64,000 nucleotides of DNA. Origin: Labilithrix sp. (GTDB lineage Bacteria > Myxococcota_A > Polyangia > Polyangiales > Polyangiaceae). How positions within the stretch are numbered: the stretch's first letter is position 1; every line of letters begins with the position of its first letter. Below are positions 2,410-40,754 of the stretch, in pieces. Both the position numbers and the translations under genes were made by a program. The stretch spans positions 211,627 to 275,626 of the forward strand of contig JAHBWE010000017.1 of NCBI GenBank assembly GCA_019637155.1. The letters run 5' to 3'. The notes below the pieces were generated by a model, which saw only the letters and a program-made list of their open reading frames with translations, did not search any database and was not told the DNA's origin.

Positions 2410-4197
2410 CTACTCCCGCGTGGATCCATCTTCGTCGGGAGGGCCCGCGCGGAACGTGATCTGGAGCGTCACGTTGGTCTCGCGCGCGATCTCGACGACC
2501 TGCCTCCGCTGGCGGACGCTACGGAGGACGCAGCTCGGAAGGTCGACTGCTCCGGCGTCGGCGCTCACGCCGTCCGCGGTCGAGATGTAGCCCTCGGCGT
2601 CGACGACGAGGTGCAACACCACCGTCGCCACGTCGAGGGTTGGAGCCGACCTCCGCGCGTCGAGATAACAACGTCGAAGGGCGCGATCGCGCGTGAGGTC
2701 GCGAGCGCCGGAGTCCGGAGGAACGAAGCCGCCCGGCTTCGCCTCGAACGAGAGGTCCACCGTCGGCGTGGGACGCGCGTCGGGATCCTCGAGCACGTAG
2801 CCCGGATCCTTCCCCCGCAAGACGTCGAACACCCTCTCTTCACGTTCGGCCGTCGTGTACGGACGCATCAGCGCCTCCGCGTCGAAGGGCTCGGCGGCGG
2901 ACGACGCCGCCGGAGCTCCAGCGTCGGTCGCCTCGGTGCGCCGGCATCCGAGCAGCCCGAGCGCGAGGACGAACCCGCGCCGACGAAGGAGCGCGATCGC
3001 CGCGAGCGCGAAGACCCATCCGCCGCCGCCCGCGGCTCCGGGCGCGGTCGCGCACGAGGCGGAGCGTTTCTTCTGCTCTTCGTCGGCCGCCTCGTCGAGC
3101 TGCCGCCGCGTGTACTTCATCCTCTGGAGCACGTCGCCCTCACCGCCGGCGAGCGCGGGATCGAGCACGCCGAGGAGCACGCGATGCGCGTCCTCGTCCG
3201 CGCGCGTGAACGTCTCGTCGTTGAACAGGTTCACGAGGACGACGTCGCCGTATCCTTCTCGCGACGACTTCAAATCGCGGAACGGCTGCACCCAGAGCTT
3301 CGGCGCGCGCGGCACGATCGCGGCGAGGTCGGGGCCCAGCGCGAGGGCGACGTCCTCCGGCGTGACCTCGGGTTGCCAGCTGTACGACCACGGCCGGCGC
3401 CATCCGACGGCCTTCCCCGGCCCCGCGTCCTTCGTGCAGCGCGCGACGTCGATCATCCGATCGCGCGTGATCGTCCACCCGAGGAGCGTGCGCGGGCGAA
3501 GGAGGTCCATCCCCTTCGGATGCGTCGCGTCCATGTACGGGTAGTACGGCTTCGGCGTCTTGAAGCGGATCCGCACCGTCTCGCTCGTCATGCTCTTCGT
3601 CGCGGAGGCGGGCGCGTCGTACTTGAACGCGACGAAGAAGAACTTCAGCCTGACGTAGTGCTCGAGCCAGGAGCGCGCCTCCGTCGGGATCACGAAGCCG
3701 TTGTCGCCGAGCCACTCGTCGAACGCCCCCGCCTCCGAGGCCTGGAGCGTGAACGCGGTGAAGCTCCCGATCTTCTGCTGCGCGAGGACCTCCACCGGCT
3801 CGGCGTCCGGCTTGGCCGCCGACGCGCCCCCTCCCCCGAGGCCCGGCACGTGTTTCATCGGCGGCGGGGCCTTGTAGGGGACGTAGGGCATCCGCTGCTG
3901 CAGCCGGTCGAACGGCGGATCCTTCACCGCGAAGACCTCGGGCTTCGTCGGCGTGGGGACGACGAAGCCGAAGCCCTGCGCGGCGCGCTCGAAGCGAGCC
4001 TCGCGCACGAAGTCCTCCTCCTTCGTCTCTCGATCCCAGACGAGGAGCGTGCGCTCGACGCTCAGGTACGGCGTCTTGAGCGTGTCCTCCGTGCTCTCGG
4101 CCGAAGGCCGCGTGAACATCCCGCACGCCTTCGCGTCGGGCGGGAGGAACACGGTGAACGAGACCACGAGGACCGCGAAGCCGATGAGACGGAGCAC
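2410..4197 (-). CDS. Secreted DUF2330-like protein. It has an internal MYXO-CTERM-like segment followed by a lipobox and a TonB-C-like C-terminal domain.
   Basis: Long ORF with good composition. The probable start is the GTG at 4197 (VLRLIGFAVLVVSF), since the ATG at 4317 overlaps the divergent start at 4316. Residues 420-447 read SASCATAPGAAGGGGWVFALAAIALLRRRG. Confidence 0.65.
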   Translation of the reverse strand: MLRLIGFAVLVVSFTVFLPPDAKACGMFTRPSAESTEDTLKTPYLSVERTLLVWDRETKEEDFVREARFERAAQGFGFVVPTPTKPEVFAVKDPPFDRLQQRMPYVPYKAPPPMKHVPGLGGGGASAAKPDAEPVEVLAQQKIGSFTAFTLQASEAGAFDEWLGDNGFVIPTEARSWLEHYVRLKFFFVAFKYDAPASATKSMTSETVRIRFKTPKPYYPYMDATHPKGMDLLRPRTLLGWTITRDRMIDVARCTKDAGPGKAVGWRRPWSYSWQPEVTPEDVALALGPDLAAIVPRAPKLWVQPFRDLKSSREGYGDVVLVNLFNDETFTRADEDAHRVLLGVLDPALAGGEGDVLQRMKYTRRQLDEAADEEQKKRSASCATAPGAAGGGGWVFALAAIALLRRRGFVLALGLLGCRRTEATDAGAPAASSAAEPFDAEALMRPYTTAEREERVFDVLRGKDPGYVLEDPDARPTPTVDLSFEAKPGGFVPPDSGARDLTRDRALRRCYLDARRSAPTLDVATVVLHLVVDAEGYISTADGVSADAGAVDLPSCVLRSVRQRRQVVEIARETNVTLQITFRAGPPDEDGSTRE

Positions 4198-4315
4198 GCC
4201 CGCACGATAGATCACCGAGTCCGGCGCGGCACGGATTGGCACAGCCGCGAGCGCGCGATCGCCGGCAATTGTAGGCACCGCGAGGTGGCACCGCCCTTGC
4301 GGAAGACGGACCATC

Positions 4316-6596
4316 ATGCGTCGCTTCCCTACCCTGCTCGCCGTCCCCGTCTCCCTCGCCGCGTTCTACATCGGCTGCGCCGGCGGAGAGTCCCGAGGCC
4401 CATCCACCTTCGAAGAAGCCCAGGCGGACTACCAGCGCTGCCTCGACGACGAGCGGACACGGCTCGGTCAGTCGGCGAGCAACGGCGCGAGCGGCGAGGA
4501 CCCCAAGGGCCCGTTCGGCGCGCATCTCATCGCGACCGACACGACCACCGTCGCGAACGCGATGCGCGAGAACCTCAAGGGCTCCGTGCGCGTCAGCGTC
4601 GAGCGCGACCGCGTCGCTCGGATCGCGACGGTGCGCTGCGCTTCGCTGAAGCCGGACCCGGAGCGCTGGGCGACGGGCGACGGGCGACGGCTGGTCGGCG
4701 GACGCCGGAGCCTTCTCGTCGTCGACCTCCGGCGCGCCGGCCAGAGGGTCCGCTCCGCCGGCGGCCGAGAGCGCGAAGCAGGCGTCGGGCACCAACAACC
4801 AAGTCGCCGGCGTCGACGAGGCCGACTTCGTCAAAAACGACAACAAGTATATTTACGTCGTCAACGGCTCGCACTTCCGCATCGTCGACGCCTTCCCCGG
4901 CTCGAACATGCACCAGATCGCCGACGTGACGGTGCCCGGGACGGCGAAGAAGCTCTTCGTCGAAGGCACGCGCGCCGTCATCTACTCGTCCATCCCGCGC
5001 CAGAGCGGCGGCTACGACCCGTACGGCGGGAGCGGCGGCGAGTGCACGTACGGCTACGACGGCTGCGTCCCGTCCGGCGACGGCACCGAGACCGAAATAT
5101 CGATCTTCGACATCTCCACCCTCTCCGCGCCGCGGCTCGTGCGGAGCATCCACTCGTCGAGCTCGCTCATCGCCGCGCGTCGGGTCGGCAAGGCGATCCA
5201 CACCGTCCTCGGGCAGCCGTCCCCGTTCTCGGGCGCCGGCACGTACGTCTACGTCGACCTGCCCGAGGACGCGACCGAGGCCGCGGTCAACGCCGCGTAC
5301 GGCCGCGCCCTCGACCAGCGCCTCCGCGAGATCGACGCGCAGAAGATCGAGGGCCAGCTCCTCCCGAGCTGGAGCGACAGCGCGGGCGCGCCGATCGAGA
5401 CGGGCCTCTACACGTCGAGCATGCCCGACGGCACGGCGCTGACGAGCGTGCTCTCCGTCGACATGACGACGGCGGACAAGCTCTCGATCGCGTCGGTCAT
5501 CAGCCGCCCCGGCTGGGTCTACGCGTCGTCGGAGGCGCTCTACATGGCCGTGCCGCACCAGCAGATCTCCGGCTGGGGCTGGTACGAAGGCCGCTCCGAG
5601 AAGGAGCTCTCCACCATCCACAAGTTCGCCGTCGGCGCGGACGCGCGCGCCACCTCGTACGTCGGGTCGGGCTTCGTGAAGGGCCGCGTCCTGAACCAGC
5701 TCGCGATGGACGAGGACAAGGGCTTCCTCCGCGTCGCGACGACGACGGGCCACCTCCCCTCCCCCAACGCGCACAATACGATCTCGATCCTCGAGACGAA
5801 GAACGGCGAGCTCGTCGAGACCGGCAAAATCGATAACGTCGCGCCGTCGGAGGACATCCGCTCCGTGCGCTTCGACGGCGACCGCGGCTACATCGTCACG
5901 TTCAAGAAGACCGACCCCCTCTTCGTCTTCGACCTCGCCGATCCGCGCGCGCCGAAGACGCTCGGCGAGCTGAAGATCCCGGGGTTCTCGACCTACATCC
6001 ACATGATGGACCCGACCCACCTCCTCACGATCGGGTACGACGCGGCGGACCACGGCGACTTCGCCTACTTCACCGGCGTGCTCCTCCAGATCTTCGACGT
6101 GTCGAACCCGACCGATCCGAGGCTCACGCACAAGGAGGTCATCGGCACGCGCGGCTCGAGCTCGGAGGCGCTCACGAACCACCTCGCCTTCACCTACTTC
6201 GCGCCGAAGAACCTCCTCGCGCTGCCGATGACGGTCTGCGAGGGCGGCGACACGAACGGCGGCTACGGCACGCAGATGACGTTCAGCGGCCTCATGGTCT
6301 ACGACGTCACCGCGCAGGGCGGCTTCAAGCTCCGCGGCAAGGTCGCGCACCCGAGCGCCGTCGACGAGCAGCAGTACGGCAGCGTCAACACCTGGGGCTA
6401 CTACGACTCCGCCTGCTCGAACTGGTGGAGCAACGCGAAGAGCGAAGTGAAGCGCAGCATCGTGATGGACGACTGGGTCTACAGCGTCAGCGACACGCGC
6501 ATCAAAGCCAACGCGCTCCCGAACCTCGGCGCCGACGTGAAGGAGGTCTCCGTCGCCGACCCCGACGCGAAGCCGACGAGCCCGTACGACTACTGA
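4316..6596 (+). pseudogene. Beta-propeller domain (PF09826-like) lipoprotein, frameshifted at a 3x GCGACGG heptamer repeat. The downstream part is intact as ORF 4908..6596.
   Basis: The lipoprotein N-terminus (MRRFPTLLAVPVSLAAFYIGCAGG) is in frame 2. The conserved body (VAGVDEADFVKNDNKYIYVVNG...) is in frame 0 from ~4650. Removing one 7-mer copy fuses them cleanly. Confidence 0.6.
4669..4690 (+). repeat. Perfect tandem triplication of the heptanucleotide GCGACGG at the frameshift point.
   Basis: Direct reading of the sequence: ctgg gcgacgg gcgacgg gcgacgg ctgg. Confidence 0.7.
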
Positions 6597-6637
6597 CCCG
6601 CCGCGCCGGCGAGCGCGCTCGTCCGTCGCGACCTGAC

Positions 6638-7270
6638 TCACCACTCGCGGAGGTCGTCGAGCCAGCGCTCGGCGTCGGCGGCAGCGACGGCCATCCCGCG
6701 AGCGAGCGCGAAGTACGCGTCGGCCGCTTCGTCGCGACGGAGCGTGTCGATGGCGTGCTTCGCGTCGACGCGATTGAGCGCCTTCACGAGGTCGTCGAGC
6801 ACCACCTTCGCCTTCGGCTTCGCCGCCTTCGCGCCGAGCTTCCTCGCGGCGGCGTTGGCCTTCTTCCACGCCGCCATCGCCGCGCGGCCGAACGCGGGCT
6901 CGTCGTCTTCCCAGTGGCGGAACGGATTGCCGAGGTTTTCGGCGATCCACGCGTCGCTCTTCGCCCCGCGGATCGCGAGCGCGCCGGCGCCCTCCTGCGA
7001 CTTCGCGAGCGCCGCGGCGTCGGCCTTGTTCAGCCCGCGGATCGTGAGCCCGTCGAACCGCCAGCTCGTGGGCCAGCGCTTCGCGTCGAGCTCGTACAGC
7101 TCCGCGATCGTCAGCTCGCGGAGGCCCTTCAACGCGGCGAGACCGCTCGCGTCGGTGAGCCGGCCCGGCGCCCCACGCAGCGTGAGCTCGACGAGTTGCG
7201 TGTACTTCGCAAGTGCCTTCGTGTCGGTCTCGCGGAGCGCGCGGTACTCGACGGACCGTACGTCCTCCAT
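6638..7270 (-). CDS. Hypothetical protein.
   Basis: Normal composition with Lys present. The opposing + ORF is Ser/Ala-rich junk. Confidence 0.55.
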   Translation of the reverse strand: MEDVRSVEYRALRETDTKALAKYTQLVELTLRGAPGRLTDASGLAALKGLRELTIAELYELDAKRWPTSWRFDGLTIRGLNKADAAALAKSQEGAGALAIRGAKSDAWIAENLGNPFRHWEDDEPAFGRAAMAAWKKANAAARKLGAKAAKPKAKVVLDDLVKALNRVDAKHAIDTLRRDEAADAYFALARGMAVAAADAERWLDDLREW

Positions 7271-7429
7271 CCCTCGCGGCGGCGCCAGTTCGTACCACCG
7301 TCCTGATCCGATCGATCGTGTGGTGCCGCGGGCCCTCGAACGCGTTCCCCATGAGGATGGGCGTGCCTTGCCTAAACCCTCGTAAACACTGGCCCGCAGC
7401 CAGGCATACTACATGTAGGAGACCCCTTC

Positions 7430-30199: not shown

Positions 30200-30349
30200 G
30201 CTCGAACCGAGACTATCGCAGGGACGCGCACACCATGATCGGACCGATCGAACCCACGAATTTCAGGTTTTTGAGCCGCCCAACCATCGAGAATCCTTCA
30301 GCACGCACTCTGTCCCACCTGTGGTACCCATGTTGCTTCGTAGGTGGGC

Positions 30350-30931
30350 ATGCGGCCGCTCCACGCGATCTTTTGCCTCGTGCTCCTCCCCTCCGCCGTC
30401 GCGTGCACGAGCGCGAACGACGAACCCACGACGTCGTCGGAGGCGCAGATGACCGACACCGGTCCCGTCCTCGACTGCACGAAGCCCGGCTCGTTCCCGG
30501 AAGAAGCGATGCTCGCGCTGCCCGGCACCTACGAGCGCGTCGGGGCGTCGGCGGCGAACACGATGCGAGGGTTCACGATCGGCGCGCTCGAGGACATCGC
30601 GGGCTGGGCGGGCAAGAACGCGAGCTACACGCGCGACGTGACCGCGCCGTGCATGGACTTCGTCGCGATCGGCGACGGCTCGAGCCTCACGAAGGACAGC
30701 CCGCTGCCGATGACGAGCGACGCGTGCGCGGGACAAACGGGTACGATCACGACGCTGATGGACAACCCCGCGCTCGGCGCGTTCCTCTCGTTCGAAGACG
30801 CGTCCGGCCTGCCGTTCGGCAAGGACTTCTACTTCGTGACGAGCTCGCGGATCGAAGACGACAAGCTCGTCGCGATGTGCCTCTCGAGCGCGAGCGGCGA
30901 GCAGTTCCTCGTGACACGCAAGGGGCCGTGA
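30350..30931 (+). CDS. Hypothetical lipoprotein.
   Basis: MRPLHAIFCLVLLPSAVAC signal peptide with lipobox. Normal composition. Confidence 0.6.
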   Translation: MRPLHAIFCLVLLPSAVACTSANDEPTTSSEAQMTDTGPVLDCTKPGSFPEEAMLALPGTYERVGASAANTMRGFTIGALEDIAGWAGKNASYTRDVTAPCMDFVAIGDGSSLTKDSPLPMTSDACAGQTGTITTLMDNPALGAFLSFEDASGLPFGKDFYFVTSSRIEDDKLVAMCLSSASGEQFLVTRKGP

Positions 30932-31046
30932 GCTGCTCTCGCCGGTCCTGATCGACGATCCGGAGCGGCTGCGCGCGCTCGCGACCGACTGGGCCGCGCT
31001 CCTCGAGGAGAGCGCGACGAACGAGATCACGCTCCATCCGACCTGG

Positions 31047-32066
31047 ATGCTCGCGTGGTGGGACGCGTTCGGCGACGCCGGCGGCCGCCGCCTCTGCACG
31101 ATCGCGTTCTACGAAGGCAGCCGCCTCGTCGGGCTCGCGCCGCTGCTCGCGCGGCCGTTCGTCCATCCCCCGCGCCTCCGCTTCCGCCGCCTCGAGTCCC
31201 TCGCGTCGGGCGAGGACGAAGCCGACGAGACGTGCTCGGAGCACCTCGGCCTCATCGCCGCGCGCGGCGCGGAGGGCGCGGTGGTGTCCGCCTTCGCGCG
31301 CACGCTCCGCGACGGCCGCTTCGGAGCGTGGGACGAGCTGGTGATCCCGGGCATGAACGACGAGAGCGCGCTCACGGAGCGACTCGCGTCCGAGCTCGAG
31401 GCGCGGCGCCTCTTCGTCGCGGTGGAGGAGCGCGCGATCGCGCCGTGGATCCCGCTCCCGCGCACGTGGGACGAGTACCTCGCGCAGCTCGACCCGCCGC
31501 GCCGCGAGCGCCTCACGCGCTGGCTCGACGCGCTCGAGCGCTGGGGCGCGCCGGCGCTCGTGCGCGCGCGCACGGCGGAGGAGCTCGCGGAGGCGCGCCG
31601 CGTCCTCGAGGCGCTCCATCGCGCGCACCACCCCGGCGGCGGCGTGTACGCGTCCGCCCGCTTCCGCCGCTTCCACGAGCGCGTGATGCCGGAGCTCCTC
31701 GCCCTCGGCGCGCTCGACGCCGGGTGGCTCTCCGTCCGCGGCGAGCCAATCGCTGCGTTCTACAACCTTCGCTGGAACGGCCGCGCGTGGCACTACCAGA
31801 GCGGGCACGCGCGCGGCGTCCCGGAGGACGTCCGCGTCGGGGTGACGCTGCAGGCGCTCCTCGTCCGCGCCGCGATCGAGGACGGCCTGCGCGAGTACGA
31901 CTTCCTCGCCGGCGTCCTCGACTACAAGACGGCGCTCTCGCTCGAGCGGCGCCGCCTCGTGACGCTGCGCGCGGCGCGCCCTTCCCTCGTCGAGTCGGGG
32001 CGCCGGCTGACGTCGCTCCTCCGCCGCGTCGGCAAGGGGATGCGGCATCGCTCCGAGAGCCGCTAG
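31047..32066 (+). CDS. GNAT-family (FemAB/CelD-like) acetyltransferase.
   Basis: The CelD/BioF2-like N-terminal pattern (WMLAWWDAFG) actually begins upstream of the first ATG (VLIDDPERLRALATDWAALL...). That stretch has no canonical start. Confidence 0.65.
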   Translation: MLAWWDAFGDAGGRRLCTIAFYEGSRLVGLAPLLARPFVHPPRLRFRRLESLASGEDEADETCSEHLGLIAARGAEGAVVSAFARTLRDGRFGAWDELVIPGMNDESALTERLASELEARRLFVAVEERAIAPWIPLPRTWDEYLAQLDPPRRERLTRWLDALERWGAPALVRARTAEELAEARRVLEALHRAHHPGGGVYASARFRRFHERVMPELLALGALDAGWLSVRGEPIAAFYNLRWNGRAWHYQSGHARGVPEDVRVGVTLQALLVRAAIEDGLREYDFLAGVLDYKTALSLERRRLVTLRAARPSLVESGRRLTSLLRRVGKGMRHRSESR

Positions 32067-39331: not shown

Positions 39332-40754
39332 GCTCACGCCGGAGCGCGCTCCTGGCGGCGTGATAGCCACACATCCCGTGGACCCCTGCCCCCGGCGGCG
39401 TCGACGAGGAGCATAGATAAATACCCCGCGCCGGCGTCGAATACGGATCGCACGCCGGCACGGGCCTGAAGAAGAGCGAGCCGAGCCCGCCGCTGATGTC
39501 GCCGCCGGCGAAATTGGCGTCATGCGCTTCGAGCTCGCGCGGCCCGAGCACCGCGCGCGCGAGGACGACGTCGCGGAAGCCGGGCGCGAATCGCTCTATC
39601 TGCGCTTCGATAGCCTCTCTCATATCCAAAGTAGAGCCGTTCGGTACATGGCAATACGCCCAGAGCGTATGCCGCTCCGGCGGGGCGCGCGTGTCGTCGA
39701 AGAGGCTCGGCTGCGCGACGAGGACGAAGGGGCGCTCGGGGTGCTCGCCGCGCGTGACGGCCGCCTCCGCCGCCGCGATCTCCTCGAACGTCCCGCCGAC
39801 GTGCACCGTCCCCGCGCGCCGGCACTCCTCCGCCCGCCACGGCACCGGCGCGCGGAGCGCATAGTCGATCTTGAAGGCGCCGGGACCGCGCTCCCAGCGG
39901 CGGAGGCGCGCGCGGTAGCGCTCCGGCAGCCGCGCCGCCGCGACCTGCTCCAGGATCGCCGGCGACGTGTCGAACAGCACCGCGCGCGCGGCGAGCGAAT
40001 CCAGGTCCCGGACGCGCACGCCGCCGGTGACCTCGCCGCCGTGCGTCCGCAGCACCGAGACGAGCGCCTCCGCGATCCGCTGCGAGCCGCCGCGCGCGAA
40101 CGGCCAGCCGCACGCGTGCGCCGACGCGGCGAGGAGGAGCGCAAACGACGCTGTGAACGGCGCGTCGAGCGGCAAGAACGAGTGCGCCGCGAGCCCGGCG
40201 AAGAGGGCCCGCGCCCGCGCGCCCTCGAAGGCGCCGCGCGCGAGCATGCGCGCGGAGAGCGCGGCGCGGAGCCCGAACCGCGCGAGCTTCAGCGGATGCC
40301 GCGGCACGTGCAACACCGGCGCGAGAACGTCGCCGGCGAGCGCGCGAAGGTCCCGCGCGAGCGGCCGGATCACGATGCGGTACGCCGCGCCGTCGCCGCC
40401 CAGCGCGCGCGCCGTCTCGTCGACCGACGCGAAGAGCGCGCCCGCGCCGCCGTCGTCGAGCGGGTGCGCGACCGCGATCGGCGGCTGCGCCCAGCGGAGC
40501 CCGTGCTCCGCGAGCGGGAGCGTCGCGAAGAACGGCGACAGCACCGCGAAGGGATGCACCGCCGAGCAGACGTCGTGGCGATACCCCGGCTCCGTGAGCG
40601 CGGCCGTGCGCGTCCCGCCGCCGATCGTGGGCTCCGCCTCGAGGACGCGGACGCGGACGCCCGCGCGGGCGAGCACGATCGCGGCAGCGAGGCCGTTCGG
40701 CCCACTGCCGACCACGACCGCGTCGTCGTTACCGCGAGTGTGGCGCTGACCCAT
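39309..40754 (-). CDS. FAD-dependent oxidoreductase, phytoene-desaturase (CrtI/CrtD-like) family.
   Basis: N-terminal DAVVVGSGPNGLAAAIVLARAG. C-terminal CrtI-like block GIYLCSSSTPPGAGVHGMCGYHAA. Confidence 0.75.
   Translation of the reverse strand: MGQRHTRGNDDAVVVGSGPNGLAAAIVLARAGVRVRVLEAEPTIGGGTRTAALTEPGYRHDVCSAVHPFAVLSPFFATLPLAEHGLRWAQPPIAVAHPLDDGGAGALFASVDETARALGGDGAAYRIVIRPLARDLRALAGDVLAPVLHVPRHPLKLARFGLRAALSARMLARGAFEGARARALFAGLAAHSFLPLDAPFTASFALLLAASAHACGWPFARGGSQRIAEALVSVLRTHGGEVTGGVRVRDLDSLAARAVLFDTSPAILEQVAAARLPERYRARLRRWERGPGAFKIDYALRAPVPWRAEECRRAGTVHVGGTFEEIAAAEAAVTRGEHPERPFVLVAQPSLFDDTRAPPERHTLWAYCHVPNGSTLDMREAIEAQIERFAPGFRDVVLARAVLGPRELEAHDANFAGGDISGGLGSLFFRPVPACDPYSTPARGIYLCSSSTPPGAGVHGMCGYHAARSALRRELRAPPRT

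Follow-up and report, generated by a model that had tools for sequence, protein, structure and literature searches.

In Haemophilus influenzae the heptamer repeats associated with hmw lie in the promoter. Heptamers drive the phase variation of the Haemophilus HMW adhesins, according to work cited in PMC5953494, and the CATTTCT tracts of Neisseria are present in 3-22 and 10-26 copies, with numbers that vary among strains (PMC5953494). The (CTGG)3 sequence within lacI of E. coli is a hotspot of spontaneous frameshifting at which one unit is gained or lost (Farabaugh et al. 1978, as recounted in PMC12606429). In the pneumococcal type 3 capsule, cap3A undergoes phase variation by tandem duplication, and the account in PMC11163986 describes an experimental demonstration of the switching (Waite et al. 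2001). Of the known systems lacI and cap3A are mechanistically the nearest; their short duplications arise and revert by slippage without a long tract, and we have therefore treated the array described below as slippage-prone and possibly able to revert, short of a demonstrated contingency locus.

Within the window, by which we mean the whole 64-kb stretch of DNA analyzed here, the sequence GCGACGG is repeated three times in perfect tandem on the plus strand at positions 4670-4690, as seen in the sequence itself, by Tandem Repeats Finder and in our own repeat scan. The sequence-only reading had put a perfect three-copy tandem of 7 nt at about 4669-4690, and its observation as a whole is borne out in all details. 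Tandem Repeats Finder returns the interval 4668-4690 with a period of 7, 3.3 copies and 100% matches, and a GG dinucleotide lies directly 5' of (GCGACGG)x3. The G+C content of the window is 71%. A first-order Markov model of the window predicts 0.013 three-copy perfect heptamers per 64 kb, and three perfect copies are well above this chance expectation; the same model predicts about 14 two-copy heptamers, and 11 are observed. The array is the sole perfect repeat in the window of at least three copies with a period of 4, 5, 7, 8, 10 or 11. The window also contains a single perfect hexamer triple, (GGACGC)x3 at 40643-40660, which lies in-frame within the minus-strand coding segment 39675-40730.

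The array falls where a reading frame is broken. Translation from ATG 4316 (position mod 3 = 2) gives MRRFPTLLAVPVSLAAFYIGC...PDPERWATGDG and then becomes Arg-rich. The start codon, signal peptide and lipobox (…FYIGC) take up 4316..4378 of the plus strand in the translation, ending with the TGC codon of Cys21 (4376-4378), a residue shared by all 25 aligned family members. There follows in the same upstream frame an N-terminal domain of residues 22-118 (4379..4669), recognized by homology and predicted by the structural model to be a helical hairpin, the last residue of which is Trp118 (TGG, 4667-4669). The upstream frame reads as ordinary protein sequence to ...KPDPERWATGDG, and past the array as Arg-rich nonsense up to a stop at 5834..5836. 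The product of the three-copy allele (ORF 4316..5836) is thus 506 aa in length, comprising 123 native residues and 383 Arg-rich residues that are out-of-frame. The mod-0 frame, by contrast with this nonsense, is open from 4650, passes through the array and continues to the true stop of the gene, TGA at 6594..6596. It encodes the remainder of a low-complexity, Ser/Gly/Ala-rich linker (WSADAGAFSSSTSGAPARGSAPPAAESAKQA, 4691..4784), assigned from its likeness to homologue linkers such as QDGGAFSS and DAGA and predicted from pLDDT to be disordered, and then the PF09826 beta-propeller domain identified by Pfam (4785..6524, residues 155-734 of the repaired protein).

Removal of one heptamer, whichever unit is taken, creates a continuous ORF of 757 aa in which the junction reads ERWATGDGWSADAGAFSSSTSGAP, and the frame is restored equally by five copies. 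The array corresponds to codons 119-125 of 757. The repaired two-copy linker is 41 residues long, compared with 42 in the closest relative, P0001. From the sequence it had been proposed that either two or five copies would give one continuous protein of about 750 aa, and both counts, the approximate length and the exact junction peptide are reproduced.

The position of the frame change can be bracketed closely. A TGA stop in the propeller frame at 4647..4649 sets the upstream limit. When six homologues were used as tblastn queries, the match in frame +2 stopped at 4666-4684 for five and at 4795 for the sixth. The downstream frame begins to resemble homologue linkers from about 4697, where DAGAFSS can be compared with QDGGAFSS in P0018. 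Stop codons and homology together confine the change to approximately 4650-4697, some 50 nt, and the array accounts for 21-23 nt of these. This agrees with the earlier claim that the +1 offset between leader and propeller maps onto the array. That the sole perfect non-triplet repeat (period 4-11) of 64 kb should lie inside this interval of about 50 nt by coincidence is very unlikely.

Might the two frames simply be two adjacent genes, a small lipoprotein followed by a leaderless propeller? The first ATG, GTG or TTG of the downstream frame is the ATG at 4908..4910, and it does open an ORF of 562 aa. However, this ATG is within the conserved propeller, 41 codons past the start of the Pfam match, and is therefore implausible as a native start. 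Upstream of 4908 the same frame encodes the conserved motif SGTNNQVAGVDEADFVKNDNKYIY and the initial 41 residues matched by Pfam, without a start codon to serve them; none of ATG, GTG or TTG occurs in this frame between 4650 and 4908. A start for the downstream part is what the sequence-only reading had proposed to look for, and its single broken gene holds. Moreover, the last 383 codons of the supposed upstream gene are Arg-rich out-of-frame sequence, and every aligned full-length homologue fuses both parts. The conserved sequence ahead of ATG 4908 contradicts a pair of genes, and we consider this reading scarcely credible.

The repaired protein is a clear member of PF09826 (Beta_propel), with E = 8.3e-128 and a score of 427.8 bits against a gathering cut-off of 22.4; the match extends over residues 155-734 and covers positions 2-494 of the 495 in the model. 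A search of 5.8 billion proteins returned 900 homologues, the best at 74% identity. The best 120 of the 900 are mostly 700-776 aa in length and come from Myxococcota metagenome bins labelled Labilithrix, Myxococcales, Polyangiaceae or Pendulispora. We aligned 24 of these 120, and all 24 are continuous across the junction. They have a common architecture of signal peptide with an invariant Cys, N-terminal domain, variable low-complexity linker and propeller, the last opening with the invariant motif SGTNNQVAGVDEADF. Since all 24 share this single architecture, the two reading frames in the window are one gene. Within the N-terminal domain Y39, C42, L71 and C108 are invariant, and residues 22-118 are 56.5% identical to those of P0001.

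The leader MRRFPTLLAVPVSLAAFYIGC together with Cys21 constitutes a plausible, predicted lipoprotein signal by the lipobox criterion. The Tyr at position -3 of the lipobox is atypical, but P0001 also has Tyr there, and several of the homologues are called 'putative lipoprotein' by their source. The AlphaFold model, with a mean pLDDT of 73.6, contains an N-terminal helical hairpin (helices 32-57 and 76-107), a disordered stretch and a beta-propeller, and the pLDDT falls below 50 at residues 118-148, corresponding to the linker. A sequence search of the PDB with the repaired protein found no relative, NCBIfam has no matching model for it, and Foldseek against the PDB gave generic propellers only, such as DDB1, with TM-scores of about 0.28. 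The literature search on the function of PF09826 gave no functional lead. The gene is flanked by a divergent DUF2330 gene and unannotated ORFs, and there is no paralogue of the propeller gene in the 64-kb window.

Two observations were made on other members of the family. The 90% cluster of P0061 mixes 716-aa propeller proteins with many members of 300-340 aa and one of 1068 aa. Two of its members have the adjacent locus tags BGO98_14435 and BGO98_14440, which suggests that one assembly has the propeller gene fused to a neighbor. In contig L031 (PVBE010418434.1) a perfect octamer array, (CCCCCTCA)x4 at 15-46, precedes the start of another PF09826 homologue by approximately 85-115 nt; it is at the extreme end of the contig and could be either a promoter-proximal repeat or a contig-end artefact.

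We have sought signs of decay in the sequence beyond the break. Of 195 residues without variation among the 24 homologues, the downstream frame retains 194, the one exception being a change of Val to Ile. It retains 277 of the 282 positions conserved at 92% or more, a proportion within the range of 0.968-0.996 given by intact homologues. Identity to outgroups is 68.0% for the window protein and 66.6% for its sister P0001, so there is no acceleration of rate. With the downstream frame undecayed, the frameshift is of very recent date, spurious or reversible.

The linker in which the array lies is itself variable in length. In one 90% cluster there are 11 homologues from different samples that are 98-100% identical, and these have three internal indel sites, all of them within the equivalent linker and directly before SGTNNQ; outside the linker no internal indel was found in the 708 columns of these 11 sequences. 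This indicates that slippage is common in the low-complexity GC-rich segment. In-frame indels of the linker would be tolerated because the segment is disordered; the indel in the window is of the out-of-frame kind.

Taking these results together, we consider it probable that a very recent slippage duplication, from two copies to three, has inactivated a PF09826 lipoprotein gene, and that the event was incidental, with no evolved switch. The ancestral linker would have opened with GCGACGG twice in succession, an arrangement due to chance. Slipped-strand mispairing in replication could then have generated the third GCGACGG, adding 7 bp. On the resulting mRNA the ribosome would leave the native frame after Gly123 to make the 506-aa product with its Arg-rich nonsense tail. 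The propeller would be left without a start codon or signal peptide, and we therefore take the gene to be inactive. Reversion through loss of one unit may be possible, perhaps at a rate somewhat above background. Given two copies already present by chance, a single +7 event is enough to account for the array and the frameshift together.

Two other histories were considered and rejected. If the three-copy array were ancestral and in frame, with a 1-nt insertion nearby, a very improbable array and a second independent event within the same stretch of about 50 nt would both be required, and this is less parsimonious. The footprint of transposon excision, with a 7-bp target duplication, was set aside as there are no remnants of an element and slippage is simpler for the perfect register.

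We looked for the presumed two-copy ancestor among relatives. No protein of greater than 74% identity is present in the searched collections, whether by protein search or by a scan of metagenome proteins (best 74%), and the scan of genome contigs for relatives reached 61% identity at best. A DNA pattern of the left flank plus two heptamer copies had 0 matches in metagenomes. The closest relative, L028/L029 (74%), has a linker sequence and neighbors that differ from those of the window and so is uninformative about the heptamer repeat. With nothing closer than 74% amino acid identity, we infer the two-copy ancestor rather than observe it directly.

A wholly undecayed downstream ORF is also what would be expected if the natural gene were intact with two copies, and the third copy were an artefact of sequencing, assembly or polishing, or a minority or lab-acquired variant fixed in culture. 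The allele has no second independent sequence in the searched collections, covered by exact look-ups of four window proteins and by the DNA pattern, and this is consistent with such an origin. Common sequencing platforms err mostly by homopolymer indels or substitutions, rather than by clean 7-bp duplications. A clean tandem duplication of 7 bp would thus be an atypical platform error. Furthermore, a screen by GC3 and start codon found no other clearly split gene among the approximately 53 coding segments of the window. The error-prone contig L054 looks different, with two split genes in 9.5 kb. On balance we regard an artefact or culture variant as unlikely, if still deserving of some weight.

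The split genes of L054 (ENA ERZ25039496 contig_5691) can be described as follows. At 3333-5524 a PF09826 homologue of 71% identity is divided into adjacent ORFs of 218 aa and 507 aa; the split is at a different site, within the propeller, and the neighboring PepQ_N/Peptidase_M24 gene is split too. These splits probably reflect indel errors in that assembly. Elsewhere in the window, a GNAT acetyltransferase gene (PF13480) at 30915-32066 on the plus strand shows coding signal starting at about 30930, yet lacks an ATG, GTG or TTG before 31047. An in-frame CTG at 30933 follows AAGGGG (30921-30926), which suggests a CTG start rather than a clear frameshift, and this start would overlap the stop of the preceding lipoprotein-like ORF at 30344-30931.

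An undecayed ORF might alternatively indicate a reversible OFF state. In this case the array would be an evolved simple-sequence contingency locus, its copy number changing at high frequency, with the surface lipoprotein ON at two or five copies and OFF at three or four, and the genome sequenced in the OFF state. Several properties of the locus are of the kind expected. The 7-nt unit is not divisible by three and lies inside an ORF, which is intact apart from the repeat. The array falls in the 5' sixth of a gene for a surface lipoprotein, and both position and product are typical of contingency genes. The three perfect copies exceed chance, heptamers have the Haemophilus HMW precedent given above, and three copies is the cut-off applied by PhasomeIt to units of 6-9 nt (PMC5953494). 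It is, however, the bare minimum; the heptamer loci of Neisseria have up to 22-26 copies, and the more copies there are, the higher the mutability (PMC5953494).

Comparison with relatives also argues against a switch. The linker DNA of all 11 Myxococcota relatives lacks a heptamer or any other non-triplet repeat, and in the 600-nt regions upstream of the motif in these 11 relatives the single match was a pentamer run of 12 nt in L006. A comparison of orthologues had been suggested as a check on the original observation, and the outcome is that the 24 aligned homologues are continuous and none of the 11 relatives has the heptamer repeat. There is no second perfect non-triplet repeat (period 4-11) of at least three copies in the 64 kb. 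In the OFF frame translation would continue for 383 codons to make a costly aberrant protein. Among the top-ranked literature matches there was no report of phase variation by simple sequence repeats in Myxococcus. We therefore judge an evolved contingency locus to be quite unlikely.

The sequence-only reading had offered a phase-variation switch and a fresh duplication that killed the gene as alternatives, and these have fared differently. The switch gained no positive support beyond passing the lowest in-silico cut-off (PMC5953494), and its repeat is missing from the 11 relatives. The recent duplication fits best, because the downstream frame is undecayed and the linker holding the repeat is a hotspot for indels. 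The third alternative offered, a sequencing or assembly error, is the artefact weighed above.

Finally, some full-length protein (…ATGDGDGWSADAG…) might still be made from the three-copy allele, if ribosomes shift by +1 at GGG-CGA. This is conceivable because CGA is rare, with 1.6 per 1000 codons in confident genes. With the rare Arg codon CGA waiting in the A site, the Gly-tRNA would slip from GGG to GGC, and GGG followed by C should allow partial +1 re-pairing, judging from known +1-prone sites. Against this, the rare CGA is a mere by-product of the duplication, and the site has neither a Shine-Dalgarno-like stimulator nor an in-frame stop. The aligned homologues are single-frame and do not conserve the site, there is no Rfam match, and the downstream RNA folds no better than shuffled sequence (z = 0.35). 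With no Rfam element, no unusual RNA structure and single-frame homologues, programmed recoding was rejected, and we think +1 frameshifting at this site very improbable.

The most likely explanation is thus a fresh frameshift allele generated by slippage from two copies to three in a hypervariable linker, an ordinary event of a known kind. Nothing suggests that the heptamer array evolved as a switch. More generally, disordered low-complexity linkers encoded in GC-rich DNA act as slippage hotspots, where in-frame indels accumulate without harm and the gene is lost when an indel is occasionally out of frame. The locus is best annotated as one frameshifted PF09826 lipoprotein gene, either a pseudogene or a variant allele, and not as two ORFs or as long spurious ORFs. 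Long Arg-rich ORFs overlap real genes in this region, of 772 aa at 2611-4929 (plus strand), 568 aa at 3140-4846 (minus strand) and 919 aa at 4593-7352 (minus strand). These are typical of the spurious ORFs found at 71% GC, and could mislead gene callers near the frameshift.

There would be wider consequences if the array functioned as a contingency locus in this environmental myxobacterium of high GC, with changes between two, three and five copies toggling a surface beta-propeller lipoprotein, but we regard that as improbable. Such toggling could serve in the evasion of phage or predators, for example. Repeat-driven phase variation, familiar from host-adapted pathogens, would then also take in soil Myxococcota and very short arrays. 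Only a heterogeneous copy number, in reads or among strains, would make the locus a candidate phase-variable gene beyond the usual pathogens.

How does the locus compare with the known systems? Like the secreted beta-propeller proteins of PF09826 in bacteria and archaea, the gene in the window matches the full model, and it has the layout of leader, N-terminal domain, linker and propeller common to its Myxococcota relatives; it differs from the family in that this copy is frameshifted. With H. influenzae hmw and the CATTTCT tracts of Neisseria it shares a heptanucleotide tandem at the gene for a surface protein, where copy number alters expression. Those loci can reach much higher copy numbers, which vary among strains, whereas the array in the window has three copies and is not conserved in relatives. 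The resemblance to cap3A is that a tandem duplication within the ORF corresponds to OFF and its precise loss to ON, but in cap3A the switching has been shown by experiment, while the locus in the window is known from one state only. In lacI, as here, a non-triplet unit is present in three copies within an ORF, and slippage at this incidental hotspot shifts the frame and inactivates the gene. The unit in lacI is of 4 nt and its three copies are the wild type, whereas in the window the unit is of 7 nt and the three copies are the mutant.
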